A stretch of DNA of 64,000 bases from Bacteroidales bacterium (lineage in GTDB: Bacteria; Bacteroidota; Bacteroidia; Bacteroidales; Cfx3-03): NCBI GenBank assembly GCA_963663125.2, contig CAXXNW010000001.1:253497-317496 (forward strand), read 5' to 3'. The position numbers and the translations under genes are program-made. The stretch's first letter is position 1. The number at the start of each line of letters is the position of its first letter. The notes under the pieces were generated by a model that was given only the letters and a program-made list of their open reading frames with translations, was not told the origin of the DNA and ran no database searches. Below are positions 9,591 to 28,708 of this stretch, in pieces.

Positions 9591-9592
9591 AG

Positions 9593-9895
9593 TTAGTCAT
9601 TTTGCTTCTTATTCAACGTCTCAGTCAACTGACGAATGGCTTCAGTCAGTTCCTTGATTTCCTTACTACTGCCTTTTCCACTTCTAGCAAAGGCATTGGC
9701 AGCAATTTGTTCAGCAGTCAACTGTTCTTTAAATTCAGCCATCTGAGCGACAAGAAACTCACCAATCTTTTCGGTTTGAGCCTCATCCGTCATCACATGC
9801 TGCAAAACTTCACTTACCTTATTAATAAAAGCCTCTCGTTCGGTCAGTCCATACGAAAGAGCCATCCGGAGAAGTATCGATGCCACATCATTCAT
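9593..9895 (-). CDS. small helical protein (phasin-like), co-oriented with ubiB
   Basis: There is a 2-nt gap to ubiB. The ORF could extend to 9955, but MNDVASILL (9895) looks the more plausible start. Function is not established. Confidence 0.4.
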   Translation of the reverse strand: MNDVASILLRMALSYGLTEREAFINKVSEVLQHVMTDEAQTEKIGEFLVAQMAEFKEQLTAEQIAANAFARSGKGSSKEIKELTEAIRQLTETLNKKQND

Positions 9896-10474
9896 GAAAA
9901 AAAGATTAGTATTTCGAGCTACAAATATATTCATAATACAGTAAAAGGCTCCCATATTGGCTTTCTTGGTTTAAGCCTTTTTATATATTTGTAAAAATCA
10001 AACAGCAATTAGAGTTACTGTCATCTTATTTTGCTGATTTATACCAATAACACTGAAACCAAAATATAAGAAACTGCTTAAAAATTTTCCCAAGGAAAAA
10101 AATAACAGGTAGAAAGGTAACTATTCAGTCATTATAATACATTGAATAACAATTAAATAAATTTGTACAAAAAGCGCTAAGAAAAATAAAAATAAATACA
10201 AAGCATTGTATTTTAATTTGTTAAAGTCTGCGCATACTTAGTGCCCCCTTAAGTCTCCTTAATTGCTACATGTGTTAATTAGCTAAATATCAACATGTTT
10301 AATTGTTTTTAATAGACTGAATAGTTACGTAGTACGTAGAAAGAATGAAATTCTTCATTAAATATTGGCTCCTACGAGACAATATCAGGATCTATTGAAT
10401 CTTTTTCTATCAATATTCAGTTTCTAACGGAACCATTTCGATAATTATATCACACGCTCAGGGGTTACTTATTT

Positions 10475-10708
10475 GAGCCCACTCCGAAAACCCTTTCGTG
10501 TAGTATTTTCATTAAATAATATTACTGAATAGTGATCTCATACATCATGCAAGTTTCGGGTTACGCTGTACAGGATCATTGCTTAAATTTAACACTTTTT
10601 AGCTCAAGTTATTCTATTGGGGACCATGTTTTTTAAATACTACGGGGGCTGAATGACAACTTATTACACAATAATAATTTGGCAAAATTGACTTTTCGGA
10701 ATGAACGC
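10475..10708. repeat. degenerate, enlarged copy of the MITE-like element family
   Basis: The first ~57 nt are about 84% identical to the reverse complement of the right end of the 60774-60883 copy. The far end 'aattgacttttcgga' matches the reverse complement of the left end of the 57179 copy. No target duplication is visible. Confidence 0.45.
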
Positions 10709-10716
10709 TTGCCTTA

Positions 10717-10794
10717 AATTCCAAAGGGATAATATGATTATAACAAAAAGGCATGTTAATTTCAAGAATTCTGGGGAGATAATATGATTATACC
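10717..10794 (+). promoter_or_regulatory. two ~28-bp direct repeats exactly 50 bp apart upstream of the GH20 gene
   Basis: The repeats are AATTCC-aaa-GGGATAATATGATTATAAC (10717-10744) and AATTCT-ggg-GAGATAATATGATTATACC (10767-10794). They share a 15-bp perfect core, GATAATATGATTATA. Confidence 0.4.
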
Positions 10795-10878
10795 AACATA
10801 ATTCTAAAACAGGAATAATAAAAAAGCAATACTTTTGAATAAGTTTATCGGATCAACCAATCAATCAACAATCTTTTT

Positions 10879-13185: not shown

Positions 13186-13229
13186 CAGTACATCGTTATA
13201 AAATCGTTCAAAAGGCCAAAGGGAGTGAG

Positions 13230-14390
13230 TTATTTAAAACGGGATGGCGTTAGTTTTATCAAAAAAATAATTACAAGAAAAACAACGACTGCAAAAGCAA
13301 GCCAGAGGACATTATAATTTGTCCGCGACAGTATAAATCCGCCTAATGCAGTACCGACGCCTCCACCTCCGAAAAGCCCAAGCCCTATCAAAGCGGAAGG
13401 CAAACCTTTCGCTTCCGATTTAACTTCAAAAGCGCTGGTTGCCAATGTAGATTGAATGAAAATGTATCCCATTCCCAACAGAACTGTTAACACACAACTT
13501 ATCAGCCATTGATTAAAGAAGATAAGTAGTAATGCTGAGGTTAATCCCAAGGTATATCCCAGAATCAATAGATACTTTCTGCTTTTTTTCACCGAGAGTT
13601 TGCCTACGAACCATCCGGCCAGCAAGCATGCGAAGCCGAAAAGCATTACTGTTAAACCGACCTGTAGATAATTCAGGCCGCCAACTTCATGAAAGTATGC
13701 ACCTAAATAGCTATAAAGACCTAATAACAAAAAGCCGGTTATAAAAGCCATCGGAAAGATAAAAGAACCTTTTTTACTCCATAAAGCCGCTTTCACCTCT
13801 TTGAGAAAATTAAGATGATCCTTTTGTACGATCGTTTTAGGCAATAGCTTCAATGAGAGAGCAGAACAAACGGCAATGAAAGAAAACAAAGCAAAAATAA
13901 GTCGCCAATTTAAAAATTTAATCAATAATCCGCCAATACCGACACTTAATCCCTGACCCAAAAAAACGATTCCCATAAATCTGCCTACATAAACCTGCCT
14001 TTCTCCGGGTGGGATCTTATCTCCGATCAATGCCAGAGAAACAGCAATGATGCCGGCAGCAAAGAAGCCGGTCAATGCACGCCACAAGCATAAGGCATGA
14101 AACGATGTGGAGAGGCTGCATCCGAGCGTTCCGATAGCTAATGCCGTCACAATTACCCTCAAAACCTTCGATTTATCATGACGGTCGCTTATAAAACCAT
14201 ACACAGGCTGCATCAAACCGTAAGGAATCATGTAAGCGGTAAGAATAATGCCGGCAGTTGGAATGGTAATGTTAAATCCTTTCGCCAAGGCAGGTAAAAT
14301 AGGTGCGACAATCCAATTGTCGGCCGCAGATACAAAACCGGCCAATCCTAATATATAAACAAGCTTTTTATTTACTTTGTTCCTTTCCAT
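13230..14390 (-). CDS. MFS transporter
   Basis: 386 aa, about 12 hydrophobic segments, and an MFS-like 'GFISDRHDKSKV' loop. Confidence 0.8.
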   Translation of the reverse strand: MERNKVNKKLVYILGLAGFVSAADNWIVAPILPALAKGFNITIPTAGIILTAYMIPYGLMQPVYGFISDRHDKSKVLRVIVTALAIGTLGCSLSTSFHALCLWRALTGFFAAGIIAVSLALIGDKIPPGERQVYVGRFMGIVFLGQGLSVGIGGLLIKFLNWRLIFALFSFIAVCSALSLKLLPKTIVQKDHLNFLKEVKAALWSKKGSFIFPMAFITGFLLLGLYSYLGAYFHEVGGLNYLQVGLTVMLFGFACLLAGWFVGKLSVKKSRKYLLILGYTLGLTSALLLIFFNQWLISCVLTVLLGMGYIFIQSTLATSAFEVKSEAKGLPSALIGLGLFGGGGVGTALGGFILSRTNYNVLWLAFAVVVFLVIIFLIKLTPSRFK

Positions 14391-14836: not shown

Positions 14837-14988
14837 GGTTTCGATTTTACAGCTAACTTGTATTCCGGTCTTAATGGCCCTGCTTATCCTATCATTTATT
14901 AGGATTTACAAATGTACAGAAATTGACAGTGAGAACCAGCAATAACATTTATAGTAGTAGTTACTAATTTCAATTTGCCAAAATAAAT

Positions 14989-16287
14989 CACTACTGTCCA
15001 GTTAAAATAAACTGAGTGACAGTTGGTTACAATTCAGTTCTTTGACATCTTTGTAATCTACATTTGCAAGAAGCTCGTTTACAGGAGTTTTATCAAGAAG
15101 TGATATTCCAATCACCTGTAATATTTCGTAGGTTGACCGTGATATTTTCAACTCATTTCCTATGATTGAAACCAAACAGTAGGTAATAAGTGCACAATAT
15201 ATCTGGATCAAAACAGCATTTTGAGAAGTACCCCAAAAGGATTTTATTTTTAAGTGTTGTTTAATCCATTTGAAAAAGAGTTCTATCTGCCAACGATTTT
15301 TATAGAGCAAAGCTACCTGAGCGGACGTGATATCAAAATTATTGGTGAGGTAAATGAATGTTCGATTGGTTTGTTCATCGTGAAATTTAACTCTGCGAAG
15401 TTTGTCTGGATACTTTTTGGAGATGTAAAATCCTTTCAGTTTTCCAATTTGGTCACATAATACACCAGAACTCTTATCAATCTTTTGGGAATACATCCTG
15501 TTAAATTGAAGATTTGATTTTGCACGGATAACAAAAAAAGCTGAGTGCTGTGTGATCTTGAATAGCCTCGTGTAATCGATATAACCTCTGTCAAAGATGT
15601 AATATGCACTTTGCTCATAGTTGAGATAATCCATTGCGTTGACATCATTCACTGTGGCTGGAGTAATATGCACGAAAGCAGGTATTTGAGTTGTAATGTC
15701 AAAAAGAGTATGTAGTTTTATTCCTCCTTTTGCTTTACGAAACTTTGCCCACCAGAAGACGCTCAAGCAAAGATCAATGGTTGATGAGTCAAAAGCATAT
15801 ACTGTTCCTTTGATCTCAAAATCATCATTAGCTCTGTTCCTTCTGGCTACATCAATTAGATGATAAGCAAACTCTTCAAATATTTTGCTATTTCTCTTTT
15901 CATTGGCTTTAGCCAGATTGCTCCTGGTAACGTTTTTACCAAAACCAAGATGATAGGATTTGTTACTATGAGCATCCAGTGCAACTAATAAATCTCGAAG
16001 ACTATCCCGATTGGTGAGTTGTCCAAAGAGCATGCAAAGCAATTGGTTCCAGCAGGTGAAATGCTTGACATACTTATTGCCTTCATACTTTTCAACTATA
16101 CGATCGAAAATCCGTTGAGGGAGAAATTCAACTATCTGTGCGAACACATATTTGCCTTGATTCATTGTTGGGTATTAATTTTCCAACGAACATAATCAAT
16201 TCAAATCGTCACGCTACAAAATAGCTTGCATAATATAGATTCTCAATGATTTCAAAGAACAATTTTTATTTTAACTGGACAGTAGTG
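14989..16287 (-). mobile_element. intact IS4-family insertion sequence (1299 bp)
   Basis: 23-bp perfect terminal inverted repeats cactactgtccagttaaaataaa sit at 14989-15011 and 16265-16287. A 9-bp direct target duplication aaaataaat sits at 14980-14988 and 16288-16296. Confidence 0.88.
15002..16165 (-). CDS. IS4-family DDE transposase (DUF4372-type N-terminus)
   Basis: 387 aa. The N-terminal 'KYVFAQIVEFLP...FDRIV' is typical of Bacteroidota IS4 transposases. The DDE core has 'YAFDSSTIDL', 'YIFDRGY' and 'RWQIELFFKWIKQ'. Confidence 0.9.
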   Translation of the reverse strand: MNQGKYVFAQIVEFLPQRIFDRIVEKYEGNKYVKHFTCWNQLLCMLFGQLTNRDSLRDLLVALDAHSNKSYHLGFGKNVTRSNLAKANEKRNSKIFEEFAYHLIDVARRNRANDDFEIKGTVYAFDSSTIDLCLSVFWWAKFRKAKGGIKLHTLFDITTQIPAFVHITPATVNDVNAMDYLNYEQSAYYIFDRGYIDYTRLFKITQHSAFFVIRAKSNLQFNRMYSQKIDKSSGVLCDQIGKLKGFYISKKYPDKLRRVKFHDEQTNRTFIYLTNNFDITSAQVALLYKNRWQIELFFKWIKQHLKIKSFWGTSQNAVLIQIYCALITYCLVSIIGNELKISRSTYEILQVIGISLLDKTPVNELLANVDYKDVKELNCNQLSLSLF

Positions 16288-16361
16288 AAAATAAATAAGT
16301 ATTTACTGCATTAAATTGAATAAAAAACAATTGTAACTTTGGTTAAAGATTATCAAAATAA

Positions 16362-16844
16362 ATGGAAGTATTTTTGACAGATAAAGAGATACAGGAACTT
16401 ATCAGCGAACGAAAGCAAATGACTATTACTCCAGACGAGTTGTTTCGGAATATGAGAGATAAAAGAGGACATAAGGGATCTGAACATTTCATTGAACGAT
16501 CGGATGGTAGCTCATTTGTGTTAAAAGTTCGCTTAAGTAATGAAAACCTTCTTGACTTTTCAGCAATTTTAGGTTTTATTCCATCAAAATCGACTAAACT
16601 ATTTTTGTTAAAGAGGTACAATGGGAAAAGCCATGAACACCGAAATAAGCTGGAAAAGACAAATGGCTTTTATGATTTTCATATACATACAGCAACGGAG
16701 CGTTATCAAAGAGAAGGTGTAAAAGAAGAATATTTTGCCGAAGTCACAGACAGATATTCTACCGTTCAGGAGGCATTGAATTGTTTGATAAATGATTGCA
16801 ATGTAGTATTACCTCAAAATTCACAACTCAATTTGGAAATTTAA
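16362..16844 (+). CDS. hypothetical protein (160 aa)
   Basis: ORF with a 3-nt gap to the next gene. It has a His-rich segment 'GKSHEHRN...FHIHTATERYQ'. I recognise no family. Confidence 0.5.
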   Translation: MEVFLTDKEIQELISERKQMTITPDELFRNMRDKRGHKGSEHFIERSDGSSFVLKVRLSNENLLDFSAILGFIPSKSTKLFLLKRYNGKSHEHRNKLEKTNGFYDFHIHTATERYQREGVKEEYFAEVTDRYSTVQEALNCLINDCNVVLPQNSQLNLEI

Positions 16845-16847
16845 CAA

Positions 16848-17621
16848 ATGGAAATAACGCAAATAGAAAAAGAATTTAAAGAAAAGGTTTGCAAGGAAAT
16901 TCGATTGCATCAAGAAGGCATTGACCGGTTCAGAGTTTTCACTCCTTTTCAATTTGACGATGGTGATTCGTTTGCTATCGTATTGAAAAGAAATAGCGGA
17001 AACTGGATTCTATCGGACGAGGGACATACTTTTATGCACTTGAGTTATGATATGGACATTGATGCATTAGACAAAGGCACAAGGGATAAAATCATCAGCA
17101 CTGTTTTAAATAATTTTGGAATTACAGAAAAAAACGGCATACTACTTTCGCCTTTGGATATTGAGAATATGGGTAATGTTTTTTATAATTATATTCAGGG
17201 GCTAATAAAAATCACTGATGTAAATTATTTAAGCCGTGAGCGAGTAAAATCAACATTCTTTGAAGACTTTAAAATATTTATGGTTCAAAAAGTAGCAATA
17301 GACAGGATTAAGTTCAATTTTCATGATGGACTACACGACCCGCAATCGAAATATCCTATTGATTGCCACATCAACAAAATGGAACGACCTATCTTTGTTT
17401 TTGCTATTGGAAATGAGGATAAATGTAGAGACACCACAATAAGCCTTTTGCAATATGAAAAATGGGGACTTCAATTCAAGTCACTTGCAATTTTTGAAGA
17501 TCAGGAAACTATAAACAGAAAAGTTCTTGCACGTTTCAGTGATGTCTGCGAAAAGCAATTTTCAAGCTTAACTCCGAACAAAGATCGGATTGAAAAATAT
17601 TTAAAAGAGAATGTGGAATAG
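16848..17621 (+). CDS. hypothetical protein (257 aa), possibly DUF1828/DUF1829-like
   Basis: ORF coupled to 16362..16844. The domain guess is from memory of the family architecture only and is not verified. Confidence 0.45.
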   Translation: MEITQIEKEFKEKVCKEIRLHQEGIDRFRVFTPFQFDDGDSFAIVLKRNSGNWILSDEGHTFMHLSYDMDIDALDKGTRDKIISTVLNNFGITEKNGILLSPLDIENMGNVFYNYIQGLIKITDVNYLSRERVKSTFFEDFKIFMVQKVAIDRIKFNFHDGLHDPQSKYPIDCHINKMERPIFVFAIGNEDKCRDTTISLLQYEKWGLQFKSLAIFEDQETINRKVLARFSDVCEKQFSSLTPNKDRIEKYLKENVE

Positions 17622-17778: not shown

Positions 17779-17786
17779 CAAGGAGA

Positions 17787-18789
17787 GTTAGAATTTATTG
17801 AATTACAATTTATTCTCAAGGTGATAATTTTATACCTTTATCTTCCTCATAGCATATAAATGCCAGCCGTTTAGTAGCAATATTGAAAAAGACAATTCAA
17901 AATTAAATAACTATGAAAAAACTATTTTTTATCATCTCGTCTTTACTATTTTACTATTGTAGCTTTTCACAAGAAACAATCATTCAGGGGAAAGTGATGG
18001 ATTCAGTGACTAATACAGGTTTAAGTTACGTAAATATCGGTATCGCAAAAAAAGGTGTGGGTACTGTATCTGATAAAGATGGCGTATTTAAGTTGAAGCT
18101 AAACGAAAAAACGACTTCGAATGATACGATATTATTTTCTTTTATTGGGTATGAAACACAAAGAGTCTTGGTTTCCGCATTGAAAAATAAAAACACCGTT
18201 ATTTTATTGGAACCCAAAACTACCACTTTAAGTGAGGTTGTTATAAAGCCAAAAAAGTTTAAACTCAAAAAAATAGGAAGAAGTACAGTAGGAGTTGGTT
18301 TAACCTCTATGAACTTTTATTCGTACTATGAGAAAGACGTAGATGATAGATTGAGTAAAGAAAGAGGGATGAAATTAGAATTAAAAAAGGACTGTAGAAT
18401 CAAAGACTTGAACTTTAATATTAAAGCCAATCAATTCAAAAGCTTAAAATTTCGAATTAATTTTTATAAAATCGAAAACGGGTTACCCTCTGATCTAATT
18501 GTGAGTAAAAATATTATTTGTGAAATAAAAGATGGTTATTTAGGTTGGTTTAAAGTTGATTTGGAACCCTATAACATTTGTTTTGACAAAGAGACGAAAG
18601 AAGTTGCCGTTACCATACAATGGGTTGAAAGCAAAAAGATGAACGAACAAAGTAAATTTTTTGATATTTCTTGTGTAATATCACCATTTCATACCTGTTA
18701 TTACAGGGAGAAAGCAATGGATACTTGGACTAAAAATAATGCATGTAGTTTATGTTTTTATTTAACTGCACTGTGTAATTAAAAAAAAC
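17787..18789 (+). repeat. segmental duplication copy 1 (promoter region plus CDS)
   Basis: It aligns colinearly with 20181..21179, starting at 'gttagaa...aattacaatttattctcaa' and ending just after the stop codon. Confidence 0.85.
17913..18782 (+). CDS. secreted CarboxypepD_reg-like domain protein, paralog 1
   Basis: Signal peptide present. 'IIQGKVMDSVTNTGLSYVNIGI...GTVSDKDGVFKL' is typical of the carboxypeptidase regulatory-like domain. Confidence 0.7.
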   Translation: MKKLFFIISSLLFYYCSFSQETIIQGKVMDSVTNTGLSYVNIGIAKKGVGTVSDKDGVFKLKLNEKTTSNDTILFSFIGYETQRVLVSALKNKNTVILLEPKTTTLSEVVIKPKKFKLKKIGRSTVGVGLTSMNFYSYYEKDVDDRLSKERGMKLELKKDCRIKDLNFNIKANQFKSLKFRINFYKIENGLPSDLIVSKNIICEIKDGYLGWFKVDLEPYNICFDKETKEVAVTIQWVESKKMNEQSKFFDISCVISPFHTCYYREKAMDTWTKNNACSLCFYLTALCN

Positions 18790-19218
18790 TGCTACCCAAT
18801 AAAGCATTTCATCCAGAAAGACCCACAAAAGATTTATGATATATTTTCCGGATATATATACATTTATGTAAACATCCGGGTAATCTGCTGAAAAGCTCAA
18901 CAGGAATTTTTCATGATATTCTTGTCAGAATTCAATTGCATAATTGATAAAAATGCTTTGACATAAAACTCCCTCTGTATTTCCACATTACCTTTGCAGA
19001 GAAAGCTAATGTCATTTTTGATAAGAGACACTGGCGTACGAACCCGGCTAATTTAACCACGTTAAGTACCTAAAAGATACAGACAACCTATGGCTCTCTG
19101 GCTCTTCTAAGCCTAGCTTTGATACGATTGAGCCCATAAGAGCCAAACCGGTATTCATTATGTTTTTTTCTTTTAGCAATAAGAGCGTTCGGCTCAGGCC
19201 TTGTCTTTACCATCTTCC

Positions 19219-19998
19219 TTATTTTATATGTCGTTCGGAAGCATAGTTCAGCCAATTCTGCTTAATGGCGAAGTATAAATCATAATTTTTTGAAGTGGTA
19301 ATAAAGCTAACAGAGAAATGGCAGTGTTGCATAAAGTCTTTGATCAGGGCGGGATCTTCCCGACCGATAATCTTTGCAACAATTTCAGCATTAAATTTCC
19401 TGTTGATTAGCGTATCTTTGTTTTCTACTTGTGAAACCTTCACATACTTTTTTCGGCCTTTAGTCTCTTTACTAAACAAATTGTAAATAGCCGAAGCAAT
19501 GCCGATAATTGATATTCCGGATGTGGGGAATGCTCCTATTTCATAACGCGTAATTTTTAATCTTTTTTTCACCTCCATTTCCATGCTGTCTTTTTCAGAT
19601 CGCTTCATAGCAAGAAAGGCTTTTGTAAGTCCCTTACTTGTATTGAAAGGGAAAATGGTAACGGTGGGGAGCAGATAAATCCCTGGAATAAGTCTTATAC
19701 GTAATGAATGTTGAATATTTGCAGAGTCTATATGTCTTGCGACAAAATAAGCGCGTTCATATCCAACAGAACTAAATTGCAGGGTGTCGCCATAACGACA
19801 TAAAATTGAGAAGTTACCAGCCTGGTCGCTAATGGTTCCTGAGGGATAGGTTAAATTTAAAACATGCACATAAGATATACCGCTGGTGTCTTTTAGGGCA
19901 ATGACACGCCCCGTGACGTTGATCAGTTTTTGTTGTTCCTGTGCACTTAGCGTAAAACAAGTTATGAAGATAAAGAAGAATCCTAGCACAATACGCAT
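19219..19998 (-). CDS. secreted CarboxypepD_reg-like domain protein (distant relative of the flanking paralogs)
   Basis: Signal peptide present. 'VTGRVIALKDTSGISYVHVLNL...GTISDQAGNFSI'. Confidence 0.65.
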   Translation of the reverse strand: MRIVLGFFFIFITCFTLSAQEQQKLINVTGRVIALKDTSGISYVHVLNLTYPSGTISDQAGNFSILCRYGDTLQFSSVGYERAYFVARHIDSANIQHSLRIRLIPGIYLLPTVTIFPFNTSKGLTKAFLAMKRSEKDSMEMEVKKRLKITRYEIGAFPTSGISIIGIASAIYNLFSKETKGRKKYVKVSQVENKDTLINRKFNAEIVAKIIGREDPALIKDFMQHCHFSVSFITTSKNYDLYFAIKQNWLNYASERHIK

Positions 19999-20180
19999 AT
20001 AGCCTTGAGTTTAGAAAGTAAATTTACACATTCTTCATATTCTTTAATTTGAGCAGCGCCTGTTTAACAATATTTATGATCACTAAGCGCTCTCAGTAGC
20101 AATCTTAGGAGCAAGTAAACCTCCGGTTAATCGTGCTGAAGAATAACTTACATAGTCATACTACATTCGACTTTATCAAA

Positions 20181-21179
20181 GTTAGAAACTATTTAATTAC
20201 AATTTATTCTCAATGTGATAATTTTATACCTTTATCTTTCACATAGCATATAAATGCCAACCGTTTAGTAGTAATATTGAAAAAGTCAATTCAGAATTAA
20301 ATAACCATGAAAAAACTATTTTTTATCATCTCTTCTTTACTATTTTACTATTGTAGCTTTTCACAAGAAACAATCATTCAGGGAAAAGTGATGGATTCAG
20401 TGACGAATACAGGTTTAAGTTACGTAAATATCGGTATCGCAAAAAAAGGTGTGGGTACTGTATCTGATAAAGATGGCATATTTAAGTTGAAGCTAAACGA
20501 AAAAACGACTTCGAATGATACGATATTATTTTCTTTTATCGGGTATGAAACACAAAGAGTCTTGGTTTCCTCATTGAAAAACAAAAACACTGTTATTTTA
20601 TTGGAACCCAAAACCACTACTTTAAGTGAGGTTATTATAAAGCCAAAAAAAACTAAACTCAAAAAAATAGGAAGAAGTTCCGGAGGGCTTTGTTTAATGA
20701 GTGTAGATTTCTATTCGTATTATGAGAAAGATGTAGATGATAGATTGAGTAAAGAAATGGGGATGAAATTAGAATTGAAAAACGATTGTAGAATCAAAGA
20801 TTTTAACTTTCGTATTAGTCAGAATGATTTTAAAAATATAAAATTCAGAGTTAATTTTTATAAAATAGAAAACGGTTTACCTTCTGATCTAATTGTGAGT
20901 AAAAATATCATATGTGAAATAAAAGATGGTTATATAGGTTGGTTTAAAGTTGATTTGGAACCTTATAACATCTGTTTTGACAAAGAGACGAAGGAAATTG
21001 CGGTTACCCTACAATGGGTTGAAAGCAAAAAGATGAACGAAAAGAGTAAATATTTCTCTATCTCGGCGGCAATAACACCATTCAATACTTTTTACCATAG
21101 AGAAGAAGCGTTTGATAAATGGGCTAAACTCAATCAGAGTATGAGTTTTTATTTAACTGCACTGTGTAATTAAAAAAAT
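20181..21179 (+). repeat. segmental duplication copy 2
   Basis: See 17787..18789. Confidence 0.85.
20307..21173 (+). CDS. secreted CarboxypepD_reg-like domain protein, paralog 2
   Basis: 288 aa. The N-terminal ~114 aa are nearly identical to paralog 1. Confidence 0.7.
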   Translation: MKKLFFIISSLLFYYCSFSQETIIQGKVMDSVTNTGLSYVNIGIAKKGVGTVSDKDGIFKLKLNEKTTSNDTILFSFIGYETQRVLVSSLKNKNTVILLEPKTTTLSEVIIKPKKTKLKKIGRSSGGLCLMSVDFYSYYEKDVDDRLSKEMGMKLELKNDCRIKDFNFRISQNDFKNIKFRVNFYKIENGLPSDLIVSKNIICEIKDGYIGWFKVDLEPYNICFDKETKEIAVTLQWVESKKMNEKSKYFSISAAITPFNTFYHREEAFDKWAKLNQSMSFYLTALCN

Positions 21180-21397: not shown

Positions 21398-21826
21398 CTA
21401 ACTAACTTTTAGTGAAGTTAGCTCCGTTAAAAGCTTTTCAAAACGTATATTTCTTGGTTTCAAATTTTTAATTTCACATTGCCAAATTACTATAACATTC
21501 CACCCCATTTCTTTCAACTTTGTAATATTATTATTATCTCGTTCAACATTACTGCCTATTTTTCTCATCCAAAATTCGATATTTGTATCAGGCATTTTAC
21601 CTGCTTTACAAGAATGTCCATGCCAAAAACAACCATTTATAAAAATCACCGTTTTATATTTGAAAAGAACAACATCCGGTTTTCCTGGAAGCCCTTTTAC
21701 ATTTTTCCTATACCTAAAGCCTTTTAAGAACAAATATTTTCGTACTAAAACCTCAGGTTTTGTTTCCTTTCCTGAGATTTTAGACATAATATTACTACGC
21801 TTATCTTTAGTATAAATATCACTCAT
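21398..21826 (-). CDS. vsr: very short patch repair endonuclease
   Basis: 142 aa with 'TKPEVLVRKYL', 'GKPDVVL' and 'FINGCFWHGH'. Its ATG overlaps the upstream stop (ATGA). Confidence 0.9.
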   Translation of the reverse strand: MSDIYTKDKRSNIMSKISGKETKPEVLVRKYLFLKGFRYRKNVKGLPGKPDVVLFKYKTVIFINGCFWHGHSCKAGKMPDTNIEFWMRKIGSNVERDNNNITKLKEMGWNVIVIWQCEIKNLKPRNIRFEKLLTELTSLKVS

Positions 21827-23373
21827 TTTTTTTCTGCTGATCGCCTAAGCCATTCGGAATGATTTGTCCCCACTCGTGATAAAGTAGCCGCAAAATCATT
21901 AGAAATACTTTGAGCAAAATCATTTTTCAATTCACCAATCCAATTAAATACAGCACCAGAGTTTGACTTAAAAACAAACTTTTCATTAACTTTTTCAGAT
22001 CGTATAACCCCTTTTTGTTGAGCCCCGAAAAGAACATATTGACAATTATAGATTTTATAATTAATTTGAAGATAGATATTGCTATCAATAACTATATTAA
22101 ATCTGTCAGAGGAAGATGTTGCTTTTAAGTTCAGAAAAAGGAACTCCCTTTGGTCTTGTATTCGAGTACTATCACATTTTGGTTGAATACAAAGTAAATA
22201 TTTATTACTTTGAGATAATAATATAGTTCCTAAAGTTAAGACTGGGGAACTTTCATCGTACCTTAATGTTTTTAATGTTGTAAGTTTTGCGAATCTAATG
22301 TCACTGTTTTTTGCAGAATCTTCATTTAATGTAAAACATGAAGTTAATGTCTTATGAGATTTTCTTATAAGTTTATATTCATCTTTTATTAGATAGTTAT
22401 CAATACCTTTTTTATGCAGATCCTTTAATATTTCTTTGGATAATATTATAACATCATCATTTCCATTTCCATTCGTGATTTTTTGTTTTTTATTACCAGA
22501 AATATAGGAATCAATATAACTATCTATGTAATCATCATCTATAATTTCTTCAATATGTGATGAAATTAATGTCTTTATATCAGATCCAATTATATCAATC
22601 ATCTGTTCATAAGCATCATCTGGAATAGGGAGTAGTATTTTATGTGTAAGAAATGCCGGATCCAGATCGCTTTCAAACCTATGAAGGATATCAAATGTAT
22701 TTTCCCTTATTACAGATAATGACTTAATTGCCATATTACTAACTAATCCACATGTTAAATGTGTGAACTCATTTGATATAAATTCAAAAAGTCGATCATA
22801 TCCGATAATTCTATCGATTATATCATTGCCAAGATATTTTCCTGTTGTTCTTAAGGATTCCTTGCCAACTACTGATATAATATAGTTTTTATTACTAAGC
22901 TTAAAGTTCTCTTTTTTTAATCCAGGAATTTTAGCTACAAGTGCGCCATATAAAGTATCAGTTATTCCACGAAGATCAATTTCACCAGTATAGATAATAA
23001 ATAATTTCGGTTTATTTAATTCTCTCGCAATAACGTTCTGAATAATTTTCAATGTAAAAGCGCCTCTTTCATTATCTGTATCTTCCTCTTCAATATATCC
23101 ATCTATAGCTGATGGGAATTCTATCTTCCAATCTAATATAGAAACGTCCGATTTAATAGATAATGATACAACATTGCTCAAATCTTGTTCTTTATCAACT
23201 TTATAAATTGCACAAATTTTACCTTTGGATGCTAGATCACTAGTTATTGATTTAGCATCCAATTTATGTTCCCCTATTTCTCTATTAAAGTTAGCTTCAT
23301 CATCAATGAAGGTAATTGTTTGAATAAATTCATTTACAATTCTTTTTGATAATTCAAAAAAAGAGCTATTCAT
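21823..23373 (-). CDS. receiver (REC)-like domain protein with uncharacterised C-terminal domain
   Basis: The N-terminal ~180 aa show a REC-like pattern: 'TFIDDE' (acidic pair), 'SILDWKI' (candidate phospho-acceptor Asp), 'FIIYTGE' (Thr) and 'SVVGKE' (Lys). I recognise no motif in the remaining ~330 aa. Confidence 0.6.
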   Translation of the reverse strand: MNSSFFELSKRIVNEFIQTITFIDDEANFNREIGEHKLDAKSITSDLASKGKICAIYKVDKEQDLSNVVSLSIKSDVSILDWKIEFPSAIDGYIEEEDTDNERGAFTLKIIQNVIARELNKPKLFIIYTGEIDLRGITDTLYGALVAKIPGLKKENFKLSNKNYIISVVGKESLRTTGKYLGNDIIDRIIGYDRLFEFISNEFTHLTCGLVSNMAIKSLSVIRENTFDILHRFESDLDPAFLTHKILLPIPDDAYEQMIDIIGSDIKTLISSHIEEIIDDDYIDSYIDSYISGNKKQKITNGNGNDDVIILSKEILKDLHKKGIDNYLIKDEYKLIRKSHKTLTSCFTLNEDSAKNSDIRFAKLTTLKTLRYDESSPVLTLGTILLSQSNKYLLCIQPKCDSTRIQDQREFLFLNLKATSSSDRFNIVIDSNIYLQINYKIYNCQYVLFGAQQKGVIRSEKVNEKFVFKSNSGAVFNWIGELKNDFAQSISNDFAATLSRVGTNHSEWLRRSAEKK

Positions 23374-26359
23374 CTTTATAATTTTGAGGTGAAATTTTAA
23401 ATGTTACTGCATAACCTTCTCTAGGAGTATCTAATTCAATTTGATAATTAACACTATTCATTACTTCTCTGGAGATATGTAACCCCAAACCTCTACCATT
23501 TGGTTTTCGAGAAAATCCAAGATCAAAGATTCTTTCAAAATCCTTAATATCTATTGATGGTCCATTATTAGAAATATAAAAGGCTTCTTCATCTGAATGT
23601 AGTATAATAATTTTTTCGCCTTCATCATTTTTCTGATTTACCCAATGAATAGCATTATCAACTATATTAACAAAGACCGGATAGAATGTAGATTTATAGC
23701 CCATAATCTTTCTTTTACTAAAACCTTTTGTATGTTTTAGCTGAATATTATGACGTTCCATTCTTGTTTTAAATAGGTCAGACAAAAAATACTTTATTTC
23801 AATCGCTGAAAACTCTTCTTTTTCCCGATATAATCTTCTATTTAGAGGGGTAAATAAGGTCAAATACCCATCCAGATGTTCAAAATTCGTACGAATATTT
23901 TTATAAACCCCATCCATTTGCTCATTTACATCAGCCCAAACTTTTAATTCTTTTATACTACTTCGAATTGATTTTATTGTACTATTAAACTCATGCTGTA
24001 TTACACCAACGGCCAAGCCAAGTTGGCTCAATTCTACATCAGCATGAAGACGATCCTTCAATTCATATACTTCTTCCTCTAATGAGCGATAAATTTCCTC
24101 ATTAGTAATGATATTTCCTTCCTGATTTCGTTCCCAATATATGCCTTCAAGTTGTTTTATAATGCTTTCAAGAATTTGAGTACTCTTACTCTTTTCTATA
24201 TCTATTTCATTTTCCATACGCTTCCGTTCAGATACTAAATCAAAATCAGCTACTTCATCAATCTTTAATGTTTTAAATTGATCTTTAATCTCTCGAATTT
24301 TATCTTCTAATTCAGACATCAATTCATTAGTCAGTTCTTTGACTTTACTAGAAACAATTGAAGCAGCTTCTTTTGCTTCTTTTTCCTTTTTTGAAGTAAC
24401 CTTTTTTGCTTCTTCCGAAATTTGTTCTACGGCCAATTCAAGTCTTTTCCTTTTGCTTATTTCCAAATGTAATCTATTCTTGTAGTCATTTACAAGTTCT
24501 TCTATACGATCGGCAGTCGGAATAAAAACACTTCCATTTAAATTCTCAAATTCGGAGAGATAGGCTTCCCAATCCTGCTTTGTATCTTTAGATAATGCAA
24601 TACCTCTCGGCAAAGTTATATTCAATGACAGTTTCAATCCTTCTAATTTTCTACGTGCTTGAGACTCATATTCAATAAGTTGTTGACCTGACACATCGAC
24701 ATCCTCAATATGTGCTAAAGAGCTAAATTTAGCTTCTGTTTCTTCAAGTAAATTATCAAAAGGGACTTTTATAGTTGTATTTCTTGTACGTTCAAAAAAA
24801 ACATTTAATTCATTAATGAATTTATCTTTTCGTATCTTACTTTGCTGTTCTCTCTTTTCAATTGCCTTATAATATTTTTCACGTTCTTTTCTTTTCCCAA
24901 GCCAAAAATCAGTCTTTGGCCCCCCGCTTGCTTCACGAAAAAAATCTGCAGCCAATTGAACAAAGAAATTCTTTAATATCTCTCTAACTTGCCGATATGC
25001 TTTATTCTCAATAAAACCTTCACGACCTGCTTTTTCTTTAAGTTCAGAATTGGCCTGCTTACTAATATTTATCACACCAAACATTCGTCGGTACGAAAAA
25101 AAATAATAAGAAGCACTTTTAGTCCTATTTTTTTCTATATCAATAAAATCATAATCAGAATTTCCATAAGGCAAAATTCTAATATTATCTTTATAAATAT
25201 ATACACCTCCGTATTTATCACCTTTGGCGCATAATCGAGCATGATCTTCAGCTGTTAAAATTGATTGACGTAATGCACCTTGAATATAAGCAATATTAAT
25301 AGAGAATGGACCACAGTCCGTAAGTTTATAATTATTTCCAGCCCAATTTATTTTATGACTAAAGCTTTTTTCATTATATACTTTTATGGTTCCTGAAAAT
25401 TGGCCAAATTCGTCAAAACGGCCTTGGAAATGATGGTCTGCTATTTCAAAATCCTCTGGAGTGAAAAATTCTTCTTTACCTAATATACTGTAATAACGTT
25501 CATCATTCCCTCTGTAGTCTCTAAAAGCAACTTCTATTTGAGGTTTAGGATGATTGAGAGTCATTGTATTAGTGAAACCTACTAACATTTTTTCAATCTT
25601 CGTAGCATTTTTACTGTCAGGCTCACCATCAATATCAGAATTCAAAGAATCATCAGTTGGTGAAATATAAAAATGTGTTCCATATCCAATTCCATACAAA
25701 GAAATCAACCCTGGTAATTTTCTCTCTATTTCAGCAGGATCAACTATAAAACTACTAATCTCATTTATAATTTGATTGCCACTTTGTTCAGAAATATCAT
25801 CATCTTTAATCAATTTTTTTATAGAATCAATTAATTCTGTTTTCATTTCATTAATAATAATACTATCTGGGAGTTGACCTTGAGCAATAGTTCTTATTGG
25901 TATAATAATATCTTCCAAATTTAAACCAGGTAGTTCAAATATGCTCCAGTTTATAAATGCGATTACTAAATCATGAAGTATATTGCCTCTTTTTGCTTTA
26001 GTTAAAATAAGTGTTTGCTTTCCAATAGATGAAATGGCCAAACGGCCTATACCTTTTTCGCCCATAATTGGTCGCTCAGGTTTATCAGGATCAATGGGTG
26101 GGGCTGATATTTTTTTATTAGCAAATTTACTTTCTGTGCCTAAAGTCAACCAACGAATTTCAAAATCCTCTTTTGTCATTCCTAGACCATTATCTCTAAG
26201 AATGAAAAGTTTATTTTTTCTAAAATAATCAACTTCCACATTATCAGCATAAGCATCATGGGCATTCTTAAAGAGTTCATTTATTGCTGTTGGAATTCCA
26301 GCTATTTGTTGTTTTCCTAATAAATCTAATGCTCTTGCTCTTGCTTTGAAATTAGCCAT
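23366..26359 (-). CDS. cytoplasmic dual-ATPase protein: N-terminal MORC/MutL-type GHKL module, coiled coil, C-terminal histidine-kinase module
   Basis: N-terminus: 'ELFKNAHDAYA', 'DNGLGMT', 'GEKGIGRLA'. The middle ~290 aa are K/E-rich and coiled-coil-like. C-terminus: H-box-like 'GVIQHEFNSTIKSI', N-box 'NIVDNAIHW', 'ISNNGPSI' and 'GRGLGLHISREV'. No TM segments. Confidence 0.7.
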   Translation of the reverse strand: MANFKARARALDLLGKQQIAGIPTAINELFKNAHDAYADNVEVDYFRKNKLFILRDNGLGMTKEDFEIRWLTLGTESKFANKKISAPPIDPDKPERPIMGEKGIGRLAISSIGKQTLILTKAKRGNILHDLVIAFINWSIFELPGLNLEDIIIPIRTIAQGQLPDSIIINEMKTELIDSIKKLIKDDDISEQSGNQIINEISSFIVDPAEIERKLPGLISLYGIGYGTHFYISPTDDSLNSDIDGEPDSKNATKIEKMLVGFTNTMTLNHPKPQIEVAFRDYRGNDERYYSILGKEEFFTPEDFEIADHHFQGRFDEFGQFSGTIKVYNEKSFSHKINWAGNNYKLTDCGPFSINIAYIQGALRQSILTAEDHARLCAKGDKYGGVYIYKDNIRILPYGNSDYDFIDIEKNRTKSASYYFFSYRRMFGVINISKQANSELKEKAGREGFIENKAYRQVREILKNFFVQLAADFFREASGGPKTDFWLGKRKEREKYYKAIEKREQQSKIRKDKFINELNVFFERTRNTTIKVPFDNLLEETEAKFSSLAHIEDVDVSGQQLIEYESQARRKLEGLKLSLNITLPRGIALSKDTKQDWEAYLSEFENLNGSVFIPTADRIEELVNDYKNRLHLEISKRKRLELAVEQISEEAKKVTSKKEKEAKEAASIVSSKVKELTNELMSELEDKIREIKDQFKTLKIDEVADFDLVSERKRMENEIDIEKSKSTQILESIIKQLEGIYWERNQEGNIITNEEIYRSLEEEVYELKDRLHADVELSQLGLAVGVIQHEFNSTIKSIRSSIKELKVWADVNEQMDGVYKNIRTNFEHLDGYLTLFTPLNRRLYREKEEFSAIEIKYFLSDLFKTRMERHNIQLKHTKGFSKRKIMGYKSTFYPVFVNIVDNAIHWVNQKNDEGEKIIILHSDEEAFYISNNGPSIDIKDFERIFDLGFSRKPNGRGLGLHISREVMNSVNYQIELDTPREGYAVTFKISPQNYKDE

Positions 26360-27450
26360 TGTTGATAATAATTTAAAATCGTTTTGCCTATATGTTTAGC
26401 CATTAAAGGAGGAACCGCATTTCCGATCATACGTCCTATTGTCCCTTGCCCCTTTGCATAAAACACATAATTCAATGGAAAAGATTGAAGCGTAGCTCCT
26501 TCCCTTAAAGAAATCGCACGATCTTGTTCTGGATGACCATATCTTCCATTCGAAAGACTACAAAAACGAGTTGTTATAGTCGGAGATGGCTTATCCCAAA
26601 ACATACGTCCATATACATCCCAATGACCTTCATGCTCTAAATAACATTTCAATTGCAACTCAGGGTCATTAGCCCAGGCCTTTCTATCACCTCCATCATG
26701 CTCTACTCGTTGTATCCTTTTGATATTATTTTTTTGCAACTGAGCAGTTGAATTCTGAAGAGGTGTTTTATCTATATATCCAGCCGGAATAGGATGAAAG
26801 ACATTGACATTCCCAATAGCTTCACGCACAGTTACTATTTTCTCTTTATCTCCTTTTGGTAATTTTAAATTTTCACCAAGTCTCGTAGCTATTAGCATAT
26901 ATCTACGCCGATTCTGAGGAACGCCATAATATTTAGTATTTAAAACACTATCATCAAAAGAATATCCTCTCGCTATGAGAAATAATTTAAATTCTCCTAA
27001 TGGGCTTTCTGTTTTTAATTCCAGTCCAGGAACATTTTCAATAAATATAAAACCCGGTCTGAAATAATCAACAAAAGTCTTAAAATCAGCAAGTAACAAC
27101 CTTGATTCTTCCGATTTAGTTTTATCTGTTTTTAAGTTCGTATAATACTGACATGGGCTACATCCTACAAAAATAAGACTATTATCATTCTTTGATATTC
27201 CAAGAATTGACTCTAATTCTGTGGGATTAAATTTTGAAATATCTCGAATAATGAATTGAGAGTCATGATTATTTTTTTCATAAGTATCTTTGCATTGAGA
27301 ATCTATATCAATACCGGCCAGCACATTAATTCCAGCTTGCCTAAAGCCGCAAGTCACACCACCGGCTCCACAAAAGAAATCTACTGCACGAATTATTGGT
27401 AATAATTCAGTATTCTTCTTGATATTTTCTCCATGCATAACAAATCTCAA
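26326..27450 (-). CDS. dcm: DNA (cytosine-5)-methyltransferase
   Basis: Motif I 'DFFCGAGG', IV 'GCSPCQ', VI 'ENVPGL', VIII 'QNRRR' and X 'GNAVPP'. The 3' end overlaps the next gene by 34 nt. Confidence 0.92.
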   Translation of the reverse strand: MRFVMHGENIKKNTELLPIIRAVDFFCGAGGVTCGFRQAGINVLAGIDIDSQCKDTYEKNNHDSQFIIRDISKFNPTELESILGISKNDNSLIFVGCSPCQYYTNLKTDKTKSEESRLLLADFKTFVDYFRPGFIFIENVPGLELKTESPLGEFKLFLIARGYSFDDSVLNTKYYGVPQNRRRYMLIATRLGENLKLPKGDKEKIVTVREAIGNVNVFHPIPAGYIDKTPLQNSTAQLQKNNIKRIQRVEHDGGDRKAWANDPELQLKCYLEHEGHWDVYGRMFWDKPSPTITTRFCSLSNGRYGHPEQDRAISLREGATLQSFPLNYVFYAKGQGTIGRMIGNAVPPLMAKHIGKTILNYYQQWLISKQEQEH

Positions 27451-27904
27451 TTTATAGTAAAAATAAACAATTTTTTCACTTCAGCTTTTAATAAAACGTT
27501 CATATTAATTAACGTTTCTAAAGATGGACATATTTCATTTTTATTAAAAAAATATGATATTATTCATTTTATAATTTATTCATTTACAGTTATTTGCAAT
27601 TTAAATTTCATTTAATAAAAAAGATACTACAAATCCATTTACTTTTTTATTACTAAAAGACATTGACATGTATTGCAAATATATTGATTTCTAATTGTGC
27701 ATTCAACCTTTTATTCTATTTTTTTTATGATAATAGTTTTCATTGCAATCTTATACAAAATATAATGCGTTTGGCAAATAGAATATATTTTGTTTACTGC
27801 AAAAAACATGTTTTCAGTTTCGAAAATCATTAATTTTTCATAACAAGGTCAAGCCCTGAAACAATAATTATTCTGAACTTGCATTTTTCATCATTCATCC
27901 CATT

Positions 27905-28708
27905 TTAAAAGCACCCCACTATTGCCATCGTTCCACAATCTTTCACGATAACGGGTGTGTTGTATTGAAGGGATGAGGCAAGCTCAATACCCATCGCAGC
28001 TATTACAGTGGTTTTCTCCCGGGGCACAAAACCATCGGGGAAATTGGTTATAATCTGGACATCGGCAAGCTCAGTATTTATCGGCATCCATTCGCTGACA
28101 TTTGTAGCATGCATTCTTTTAAAAGAGGGAGTTGTCGTTGTATATTCCTTTTCCGCTTCGTTCCAGACCACATCGGGGATTTCTGCAATAGTCAGATAGA
28201 CTCGATAGTAACCAATCCTTTCGGGCCACGAAAACATTCTATTCGTGATAATATTATTCAATCTCAAGGTTGCCGCACTGCGATCATCCGTAATTGAGAG
28301 GTCGGGGATTCCAAAGAATACTTCCTTGAAGGGATGGGCATTACTCATGCTAAATCCGATCAATGGAAAGTTATATTTCGATGACTCGATACTTCTCTTT
28401 CCGCGAGAGCCCTCTTGGTCCATTAATTGCAGCTGTTTGGCTATCTTCAACAACCGGTAATTATTCCGACCTTGTTTTAAATGGCTCAGGTCGAACGTTC
28501 CGCTTCGTATTAATTTCGACCAGATATTACAACCTTTCCACTCTTCGTTATTTTCACGGGTTCGTGCAAATGCTCTGTTGTTTTTGATTAAGTTTTTATT
28601 GGCGCCACCCTTGGTTGAGCATATCCATTTTTTTAAATCTTTGTCGTAATACGACCTGATGTTTCCCAAGCTTCCGCTGAAGCGAATGGGACCTTCTATT
28701 GTTGCCAT
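27905..28708 (-). CDS. hypothetical protein (267 aa)
   Basis: Long ORF with host-like composition. No recognisable motif. Confidence 0.5.
   Translation of the reverse strand: MATIEGPIRFSGSLGNIRSYYDKDLKKWICSTKGGANKNLIKNNRAFARTRENNEEWKGCNIWSKLIRSGTFDLSHLKQGRNNYRLLKIAKQLQLMDQEGSRGKRSIESSKYNFPLIGFSMSNAHPFKEVFFGIPDLSITDDRSAATLRLNNIITNRMFSWPERIGYYRVYLTIAEIPDVVWNEAEKEYTTTTPSFKRMHATNVSEWMPINTELADVQIITNFPDGFVPREKTTVIAAMGIELASSLQYNTPVIVKDCGTMAIVGCF

Follow-up and report, generated by a model that had tools for sequence, protein, structure and literature searches.

A cytosine methylase, a GHKL-fused histidine kinase and a receiver protein form a recurrent gene module in a Bacteroidales genome, with a possible role in defence or addiction

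We have analysed a 64,000-nucleotide stretch of a Bacteroidales bacterium genome (GenBank assembly GCA_963663125.2, contig CAXXNW010000001.1, positions 253,497 to 317,496 of the forward strand; hereafter the window, numbered from its first letter). An open reading frame (ORF) scan of the window finds, between positions 21,398 and 27,450, four co-oriented minus-strand ORFs that encode a C5-cytosine DNA methyltransferase (dcm), a 997-amino-acid histidine-kinase-like protein (HK), a 516-amino-acid response-regulator-like protein (RR) and a very-short-patch T:G mismatch endonuclease (vsr). It is near certain that this locus is an intact member of the family that combines a C5-methylase with a HEF_HK domain and a Response_reg_2 domain. 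The module was already described computationally in 2021, so the finding here is a rediscovery; we extend it with surveys of gene context, evolutionary comparisons and structural modelling, and weigh what the module may do.

The dcm gene (26326..27438, minus strand) encodes 370 amino acids from an ATG at 27438; its longest ORF, 27450..26326, would give 374 amino acids from a TTG, and an independent gene call of 370 amino acids fits the ATG. On the same strand follow the HK gene (23366..26359, 997 amino acids), the RR gene (21823..23373, 516 amino acids) and vsr (21398..21826, 142 amino acids; an accessory rather than a core gene), with overlaps of 34 nt (dcm/HK), 8 nt (HK/RR) and 4 nt (RR/vsr). 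Residues M1, A2 and F4 of HK are invariant in the family alignment and the RR N-terminus is conserved, which supports both starts, and thus the gene overlaps are real. The original prediction, made from the letters of this DNA alone, had described four co-oriented genes with these same overlaps, and the ORFs and family-supported starts bear it out. The G+C content of the four-gene segment is 28-33%, against about 40-45% across most of the window, and long ORFs with strong family matches in DNA of 29-32% GC are far beyond chance. All four proteins lack transmembrane segments. Upstream of dcm, an AT-rich intergenic region (27451..27904, minus strand) reads as a likely operon promoter region and holds TATATTTG, which we take to fit the Bacteroidota -7 motif TAnnTTTG. 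A sigma-70 promoter scan returned fewer sites than in shuffled sequences, and a terminator scan found no terminator-like site within the four-gene junctions or downstream of vsr; both scans were uninformative.

HEF_HK (PF19191) and Response_reg_2 (PF19192) were defined by Bellieny-Rabelo, Pretorius and Moleleki (2021; PMC8011034), and both were put in Pfam. These authors found HK and RR genes linked in 91.6% of 644 regions, often with a C5-methylase upstream and typically with Vsr directly downstream, described the kinases as soluble, reported that the genes are induced during potato tuber infection, and proposed an origin among the paraMORC ATPases that Iyer et al. (2008) described; for the module, their work was computational only. 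The window locus shares with this family both domains in adjacent genes, the group 1 architecture, the soluble kinase, the upstream C5-methylase and the Vsr directly downstream, and nothing structural sets it apart: it is a member. The original prediction had taken the arrangement to be experimentally uncharacterised, which stands in so far as the literature that we searched contained no experimental study of the HEF_HK/Response_reg_2 pair, although the computational description of 2021 precedes us. New beyond that description are, for this subfamily, a strictly obligate Dcm, an optional Vsr, the exchange of Dcm cassettes and a fast-evolving RR, together with a modelled RR of three predicted domains, including a barrel that appears unique to the family.

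The outer genes are readily assigned by Pfam, NCBIfam and PADLOC. Dcm matches Pfam DNA_methylase (2.3e-49), TIGR00675 dcm (9e-35) and PADLOC MTase_II (1.4e-82), and motifs I, IV, VI, VIII, IX and X were all located (FCGAGG, PCQ, ENV, QNRRR, REGA and GNAVP), as had been claimed for the key motifs. Vsr matches Pfam Vsr (2.8e-34) and TIGR00632 (1.1e-42), and is an accessory gene of the module, as it is beside many 5-methylcytosine (m5C) methylases. Together with the domains of HK and RR described below, this supports the domain calls first made by eye for all four proteins.

HK has the group 1 architecture (HATPase_c_3, HEF_HK and HATPase_c) and is soluble, with a maximum Kyte-Doolittle score of 1.24 over 19 residues. 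Pfam places HATPase_c_3 at residues 24-124 (1e-13), HEF_HK PF19191 at 779-845 (1.4e-30; 106 bits against a gathering cut-off of 24.1, with profile positions 1-67 fully covered) and HATPase_c at 892-990 (8.8e-16). There are 4297 homologues at 90% clustering, the best 120 of which are 59-67% identical to HK, and we scored residue invariance over 71 aligned sequences that represent many phyla. The N-terminal GHKL ATPase domain, of the MutL/Hsp90/MORC class (residues 1-130; 25970..26359, minus strand), has intact catalytic motifs: motif I (E28/N32/D35), motif II (D56xG58xG60) and motif III (G100EKGIG105) are invariant, and on these residues the domain should be active as an ATPase. A diverse profile of the HK N-terminus matches MutL (1e-4) and HtpG/Hsp90 (2e-4) over residues ~26-127 only. 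The NCBIfam family BbrUII/HgiDII (NF050001) matches residues 9-123 (8e-17), at 61 bits against a 550-bit cut-off, and PADLOC returned for HK a REase_II match over the same GHKL stretch (4e-6) plus coiled-coil noise, and nothing else.

The remainder of HK joins this ATPase half to a histidine-kinase core. A conserved middle region (residues 131-475; 24935..25969, minus strand) has many invariant polar residues, including R394, D404, E409, R412, R424, R425, E442, K443, R446 and E447; neither Pfam nor PDB sequences matched it, also when the profile was a diverse one, and it is possibly an S5-like transducer of the kind found in paraMORCs or a DNA-binding part. Residues 476-775 (24035..24934, minus strand) form, by composition and heptad score, a helical linker rich in E, K, R, Q and L, which is probably a coiled coil that leads into the DHp domain and so connects the two halves; the heptad signal peaks over residues 601-850, there are weak matches to the coiled-coil parts of CREPT and ZorA, and this is the least conserved segment of HK (35% identity). 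The DHp (HEF_HK) domain (residues 779-845; 23825..24025, minus strand) carries the phospho-acceptor His789 (codon 23993-23995) in an H box, HEFNS, of which H789 and E790 are invariant and F791 is found in 70 of the 71 sequences. In the kinase catalytic ATP-binding (CA) domain (Pfam HATPase_c, residues 892-990; 23390..23686, minus strand), the N box (N898/D901/N902) and the G2 box (G955xG957xG959) are likewise invariant. The G1 box (N931-N-G933) has Asn for Asp in 56 of 71 sequences, and the same variant occurs in ThkA (3a0r, 'WNSGPPI'), a functional kinase, so we reject the idea that this change marks a dead enzyme. The family profile matches the solved kinase ThkA over DHp and CA (8e-11).

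RR matches Response_reg_2 (PF19192) over residues 16-173 (1.6e-19; 71.1 bits against a cut-off of 27), and its 79 homologues are all full length and 25-39% identical. An AlphaFold2 model (predicted local distance difference test, pLDDT, 88; predicted template-modelling score 0.85) has three parts: the receiver (1-180), a helical domain (190-366), and a β-barrel followed by two C-terminal helices (380-515). In the receiver (REC-like) domain (residues 1-180; 22834..23373, minus strand), D24, D76, the phospho-acceptor D81 (ILDWKI; codon 23131-23133), W82, T129 and K171 are invariant among 77 sequences and D25 is present in at least 90%. The modelled domain follows the (βα)5 pattern, with fold matches to PorX and receiver domains. 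Thus, the HEFNS histidine and the DD/D/T/K receiver residues first picked out by eye are those that the families keep, with D25 as the sole position short of invariance. The all-helical middle domain (residues 186-367; 22273..22818, minus strand) is the most variable part, at 29% mean identity, with R223 and D238 invariant and N225, H244 and D253 nearly so, and it gave no family or fold match.

The putative output or effector domain, the C-terminal β-barrel with its two helices (residues 368-516; 21826..22272, minus strand), is also conserved in discrete motifs (Y392..C395.Q397..C400-D401..R404....R409.F.FL.L and K483...R500...E507-W508) and was modelled alone with a pLDDT of 86. The C-terminal ~340 amino acids of RR drew no match from Pfam, NCBIfam, PADLOC or PHROGs, nor from PDB sequences, in line with the original prediction, which had recognised nothing in the last ~330; no family in PADLOC-DB 2.0.0 matches RR, and neither the whole chain nor the barrel alone has a fold match at E<=0.001 among PDB structures and BFVD viral models. 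The best geometric matches of the barrel are to MazF/PemK, the only superpositions with a template-modelling score (TM) above 0.4 in both the PDB and viral libraries (TM 0.44-0.47 by query and 0.57-0.63 by target, root-mean-square deviation ~4 Å, E>=0.12, identity 7-10%). An hhalign comparison of the barrel with a MazF/Kid/EndoA alignment, in which the MazF sequence alone was verified, gave a probability of 0.1%, and Pfam finds no PemK, HEPN or helix-turn-helix match in the 77 RR family members. The MazF-like topology of the modelled barrel is therefore a weak lead only.

Other candidates for the output domain fell away. Matches of RR to the DH/PH and Dcp1/EVH1 folds have very low TM values and were rejected. 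A JGI label of DUF86/HEPN on one RR homologue was rejected too, as the alignment consensus lacks an Rx4-6H motif; a relaxed Pfam scan of the 77 members listed 69 families, and DUF86 does not figure in the top 25 by frequency. That scan (E<=1) returned no family except Response_reg_2, apart from faint noise. In the first loop of the barrel (window ~22171-22191), C395 and C400 drew faint zf_CopZ matches in 9 of the 77 members (best E = 0.018); this hints at a metal site or a redox-sensitive pair, but these two are the only conserved cysteines. An exhaustive profile search found the barrel in 1510 clusters at 50% identity, and in all 150 proteins listed it forms the C-terminal end, either of this architecture or of what look like fragments, so we reject a portable effector domain shared with other systems.

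Additionally, we found no hidden nuclease. Searches of Pfam, NCBIfam, PADLOC and PHROGs with all four proteins returned none, relaxed Pfam scans of the 77 RR members and of 14 diverse N-terminal halves of HK held no nuclease family, and profile searches of HK and RR against PDB sequences gave only GHKL, kinase and receiver matches. Together with the fold searches, this upholds the view that the locus has the frame of a restriction-modification (R-M) system and no recognisable nuclease, with HK and RR in the place of the usual restriction enzyme. A DNA-binding transcription-factor domain at the RR C-terminus would have told against the original prediction, and the Pfam scan of the 77 sequences shows that the output domain is not of that type.

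We examined gene context in two surveys. The RR barrel motif was the seed for the first, which covered 80 species-representative genomes, and HK for the second, which covered 42 non-redundant metagenome and IMG/VR loci. HK and RR were adjacent in 74 of 75 loci in the first survey and in 36 of 36 in the second. Dcm lay directly upstream of HK in 68 of 72 and 36 of 37 loci, and elsewhere in the flank in the other 4 and 1, so that it was present in every testable locus of both surveys (72/72 and 37/37). Vsr was found in the flank of 41 of 80 loci (directly downstream on the same strand in 10 of 77) and of 17 of 42, often on the other strand or kilobases away. As Vsr occurs in only about half of the loci, at variable position and strand, it is not core. 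In this close subfamily, the conserved unit is an obligate Dcm-HK-RR triad with an optional Vsr. The picture of dcm and vsr as an outer frame thus describes the window, where both are present, and holds for Dcm but not for Vsr in the family at large. A pair that lived mostly without methyltransferases, in ordinary signalling contexts, would have spoken against a methylation-linked role; the pair does not occur in such settings, and the sole exception to Dcm linkage is a truncated remnant in Escherichia coli.

Directly downstream of RR, subsets of loci have a gene for an HNH_2 nuclease (10 loci) or for an OLD/AbiEii-like ATPase (AAA_21/AAA_15; 7 loci), or a pair of McrB-like (MrcB_N) and McrC-like (DUF2357/PD-(D/E)XK) genes (5 loci, for example 9561-14213 of locus L015). 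Such neighbours are typical company in defence islands, but most loci lack them, as does this window. The occurrence of a McrBC-like methyl-cytosine-dependent restriction system beside a cytosine methylase module raises a question of compatibility.

The module occurs in Bacteroidota, several proteobacterial classes, Acidobacteriota, Actinomycetota, Chloroflexota, Chlorobiota, Patescibacteria and archaeal metagenome-assembled genomes. This patchy spread across many bacterial phyla and archaeal assemblies, at 55-65% HK identity, indicates horizontal transfer. The copy common in gut Bacteroidales sits between tyrosine recombinases and a transposase, and a Pantoea megaplasmid carries a divergent full triad. 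Plasmid or phage carriage as a general mode was rejected, as there are essentially no cases and the IMG/VR matches look like integrative elements. On two further IMG/VR contigs (L177, 5940-7139; L178, 6001-7221), proteins match only HK ~2-460 at 27-33% identity; these may represent paraMORC-type modules that stand alone and lack the kinase half.

The E. coli remnant is found in 573 of 5,426 complete genomes (~10%), beside an integrase at the ssrA/tmRNA integration site (for example NZ_CP051698.1, locus L179, 7122-10590, and L083, 2738-6332). Its kinase is a 572-amino-acid 'ATP-binding protein' that matches only ~349-982 of the window kinase and lacks the N-terminal GHKL domain, and its RR gene is intact (582 amino acids, 'response regulator receiver domain'). 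A frameshifted IS3 transposase lies directly upstream, and the Dcm gene is absent from the stretch examined. The PHROGs family phrog_8137 is the kinase part of this E. coli-type pair.

The components of the module evolve at very different rates. Mean pairwise identity is 0.68 in the N-terminal GHKL domain of HK, 0.67 in HK 376-475 and 0.57 in the kinase core; 0.46 in the Dcm core and 0.43 in the Dcm target-recognition domain (TRD); and 0.33, 0.29 and 0.36 in the receiver, helical and barrel parts of RR. RR thus changes far more quickly than HK, a pattern usual for components that act as effectors or contact a target. Distances in HK and RR track together (rho 0.57-0.89), and Dcm is loosely coupled to both (0.29-0.54). 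With HK core and Dcm core controlled for, partial correlations of HK and RR segments with the Dcm TRD are -0.11 to -0.02.

Natural exchanges of Dcm make the same point directly. Between the Pseudoalteromonas rubra and Marinomonas sp. loci (L041 and L050), HK is 92-99% and RR 89-97% identical, and the Dcm proteins share only 33% (core) and 27% (TRD); L041 and L046 have similar Dcm genes and the same HK/RR divergence as L041 and L050. Dcm has been replaced in loci L030, L033 and L044 also. The alternative Dcm (387-392 amino acids) is followed by a gap of 77-308 nt before the kinase gene in place of the overlap, as expected for cassette exchange. Since near-identical HK-RR pairs stand beside unrelated Dcm proteins, HK and RR need no recognition element matched to the methylase site, and probably no finely tuned docking surface on one particular Dcm. 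An HK or RR specificity element matched to Dcm was therefore rejected, with no signal in distances or partial correlations and with the L041/L050 swap against it. This also lends no support to the original prediction that the large protein reads the unmethylated target of its methylase, as no segment of HK or RR co-varies with the Dcm TRD. The swaps imply that discrimination of self from non-self comes from generic reading of the modified base, or from Dcm itself.

In the window, the module lies on a low-GC island flanked by insertion sequences. A complete insertion sequence at 14988-16288, ~5 kb from vsr, has perfect 24-nt terminal inverted repeats (TCACTACTGTCCAGTTAAAATAAA) and encloses a DUF4372 and DDE_Tnp_1 transposase ORF (15002-16165, minus strand). 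Beside it, a plus-strand gene pair at 16362-17621 encodes a 160-amino-acid protein with a weak DUF6978 match and a 257-amino-acid DUF1828 protein that matches the PADLOC candidate defence protein PDC-M24B (1.6e-20), and may add a second candidate for a defence system to this island. Between this pair and vsr, 17786-21178 holds a recent duplication: two stretches of 300 nt (17786-18085 and 20180-20479) share 95% identity, and so do the 3' ends (18747-18787 and 21138-21178), which has produced two paralogous CarbopepD_reg_2 proteins (17913-18782 and 20307-21173). A third, diverged CarbopepD_reg_2 paralogue lies between the two on the opposite strand (19219-19998). A public 8.4-kb assembly contig stops ~250 bp beyond vsr. 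On the other side of the module, a 455-bp AT-rich spacer lies between dcm and a 267-amino-acid ORF on the dcm strand (27905-28708). Neither Pfam nor PADLOC matches this ORF, the recurrent neighbours in related loci include nothing like it, and it is probably outside the module.

We suggest that the triad serves defence and/or addiction as a mobile conflict module linked to methylation, in which an ATPase switch responsive to DNA state would act through His-to-Asp phosphotransfer on an effector and no classical restriction nuclease would be needed. This reading rests on the obligate triad, the catalytic residues invariant across phyla, the co-evolution of HK and RR and the swapping of Dcm; on the HNH_2, ATPase and McrBC-like neighbours, and the PDC-M24B candidate and insertion sequence nearby; and on the associated integrases and transposases, the patchy spread and the fast-evolving RR. 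In the scheme, Dcm would place m5C on resident DNA, and the 997-amino-acid protein would be a soluble dimer held together by its DHp domain and coiled coil. Its two MutL/MORC-type GHKL heads would use ATP, through binding and hydrolysis, and would contact DNA or a partner bound to it, and their state would be relayed down the coiled coil to set autophosphorylation of His789 by the C-terminal CA domain. The phosphoryl group would then pass from His789 to Asp81 of the 516-amino-acid protein and switch the putative effector, its helical and β-barrel C-terminal module, whose output would harm the invader or the cell. Vsr, where present, would only repair T:G mismatches that arise from m5C deamination.

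We think the scheme as a whole has about an even chance of being correct. Its parts differ in strength: a role in defence or addiction is perhaps somewhat better than an even bet, and phosphotransfer from His to Asp is perhaps quite likely. A narrower version is unlikely, namely that a MORC/MutL-like ATP-driven clamp joined to a kinase reads the presence or absence of 5-methylcytosine independently of sequence, and that phosphotransfer then acts on an effector of an unseen family with a distantly MazF-like fold; such sequence-independent reading would explain how unrelated Dcm cassettes come to be swapped in. If true, this would amount to a new immune logic, restriction-like but free of a restriction nuclease, with signalling interposed between sensing and killing.

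Several considerations weigh against the conflict-module reading. Every step, from DNA binding and phosphotransfer to toxicity and defence, is an inference, and DNA binding and an S5 transducer in HK 131-475 are assumptions. The proposed effector has no recognised catalytic fold or motif and could be a non-enzymatic adaptor. The defence role first proposed is so far a contextual one, and PADLOC 2.0 has no model for RR. HK is unusually conserved for an immune sensor, and how m5C or its absence could be read without sequence matching is left unexplained. Additionally, complete copies are nearly absent from plasmid and phage records, and the seeds of the two context surveys were motifs from the close subfamily.

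Much of the same evidence could be accommodated by a pure addiction module of a mobile island, in which m5C is a long-lived antidote: once the island is lost, m5C is diluted and HK-RR kills or arrests the cell, with no primary antiviral role. The obligate linkage of Dcm with HK-RR and the location on integrative or insertion-sequence-flanked islands fit this, as does the behaviour of type II R-M systems (discussed in PMC8011034). Every mechanistic step is common to this account and to the conflict module as we propose it, and addiction does not exclude defence. However, Dcm has been replaced without change in HK-RR, which a module tuned to one methylation pattern should not easily tolerate, and the 573 E. 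coli genomes with an intact RR, a truncated HK and no Dcm in the stretch indicate that RR alone is not lethal. We consider addiction as the sole function to have a small chance of being right. Bellieny-Rabelo et al. suggested instead a regulatory two-component system, in which the kinase senses an intracellular cue such as nucleotide levels and RR regulates the methylase or neighbouring R-M genes. The bona fide kinase and receiver signatures and the induction during potato tuber infection (PMC8011034) agree with this, but none of the 77 RR members (0/77) has a helix-turn-helix or other known output domain and most loci lack a restriction gene to regulate. The N-terminal sensor position is held by a GHKL domain of the DNA-enzyme type with intact catalytic motifs, and ordinary regulators are not normally patchy on islands with one obligate partner enzyme, which leaves ordinary regulation an unlikely function.

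That HK and RR serve as a mutation-avoidance or repair accessory of Dcm seems to us quite improbable. In such an arrangement, the MutL-like GHKL domain would help Vsr or handle methylase-DNA adducts, and the phosphorelay would report m5C damage. A functional interaction of MutL and Vsr is cited in Iyer 2008 (PMC2292703), the best solved relative of the N-terminal GHKL domain is MutL, and vsr is translationally coupled to RR in the window. Yet about half of the loci have no Vsr, and where it occurs it often lies on the opposite strand or at a distance of kilobases; most bacterial dcm-vsr pairs need no such proteins, and the fast-evolving, unique output domain would be left unexplained. Very improbable, finally, is an ATP-driven restriction complex that works without phosphotransfer, with kinase and receiver as structural relics and an unrecognised nuclease in HK 131-475 or the RR C-terminus. 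It would be in keeping with the annotation of GHKL proteins beside m5C methylases as type II restriction enzymes (BbrUII/HgiDII, with the 8e-17 N-terminal match) and with the invariant acidic and basic residues in both HK 131-475 and the RR C-terminus. However, that match covers GHKL only, at 61 bits against the 550-bit cut-off, and relics would not be expected to keep His789, the N and G2 boxes and the receiver DD/D/T/K set in more than 70 sequences from many phyla.

Comparison with known systems places the module between several of them. MORC-type GHKL ATPases occur in R-M operons (Iyer, Abhiman and Aravind 2008; PMC2292703), as the original prediction had noted, and the window HK shares with the paraMORC/MORC proteins an N-terminal GHKL domain of the MutL/MORC class with intact ATPase motifs and a neighbourhood of cytosine methylase, Vsr and sometimes HNH nucleases. 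Unlike them, the window module has no helicase or RE-fold nuclease partner, and its GHKL half has a unique C-terminal extension, a coiled coil plus an entire histidine-kinase core, to which a cognate receiver protein belongs. As to their S5 domain, HK 131-475 gave no sequence match among Pfam or PDB entries. The protein paraMORC3, now filed under Shedu, has a different architecture. The BbrUII/HgiDII type II enzymes (NF050001) also carry a HATPase_c_3-type GHKL domain at the N-terminus of a large protein beside an m5C methylase, but the remaining ~540 residues of that family are absent from HK, and those enzymes have neither a kinase core nor a receiver partner. Type II R-M systems in general differ in that no nuclease family is recognised in HK or RR.

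Phosphotransfer in conflict systems has a reported parallel: in Detocs, said to have been described by Rousset et al. in 2023, transfer from kinase to receiver reportedly gates an anti-phage effector. The proposed logic is alike, with a cytoplasmic histidine kinase, phosphotransfer to an effector-fused receiver and a conflict-system context. In contrast, we found no sequence relationship (no PADLOC match for RR); the window module lacks the third 'buffer' receiver gene and the nucleosidase (PNP) effector, and it has an obligate DNA methylase and a GHKL sensor, neither of which Detocs is known to have. Type III R-M, BREX, DISARM and MADS likewise combine a methylase as self marker with ATP-using proteins, an island location and no simple type II nuclease, but only the methylase class is common to them and the window module, and none is known to use His-Asp phosphotransfer. 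The PADLOC methylase models of DISARM class 2 and Druantia match Dcm as generic C5-methylases; MADS was rejected as the same system because it has an N6-methylase and eight different genes. With canonical two-component systems, the module shares a phospho-acceptor His in DHp, the N, G1 and G2 boxes of a CA domain, and a receiver's acidic pair, phospho-acceptor Asp, Thr and Lys; it differs in that RR has no known regulatory output domain (77 members; no significant fold match). The small β-barrel followed by a helix at the RR C-terminus recalls the MazF/PemK/CcdB fold, but the best E is 0.12, none of the 77 members has a PemK match, and the conserved motifs are others. A predicted, unvalidated system with HATPase and REC domains, given in the legend of Fig. 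6F of DefensePredictor, could not be tied to the HEF_HK/Response_reg_2 family.

The module is very common: clustering at 90% leaves over 4,000 kinase homologues, RR forms ~1,500 clusters at 50% identity, and human-gut Bacteroidales are among the carriers. If its role is defence or addiction, it would be the first methylation-based system in which a two-component phosphorelay replaces a directly coupled nuclease. It would then also provide a bacterial model of how MORC-type ATPases couple DNA or epigenetic state to a downstream signal. The natural exchange of Dcm cassettes constrains any mechanism in a testable way, and the conserved E28 and H789 of HK and D81 and C395/C400/D401/R404 of RR are ready targets for mutants.

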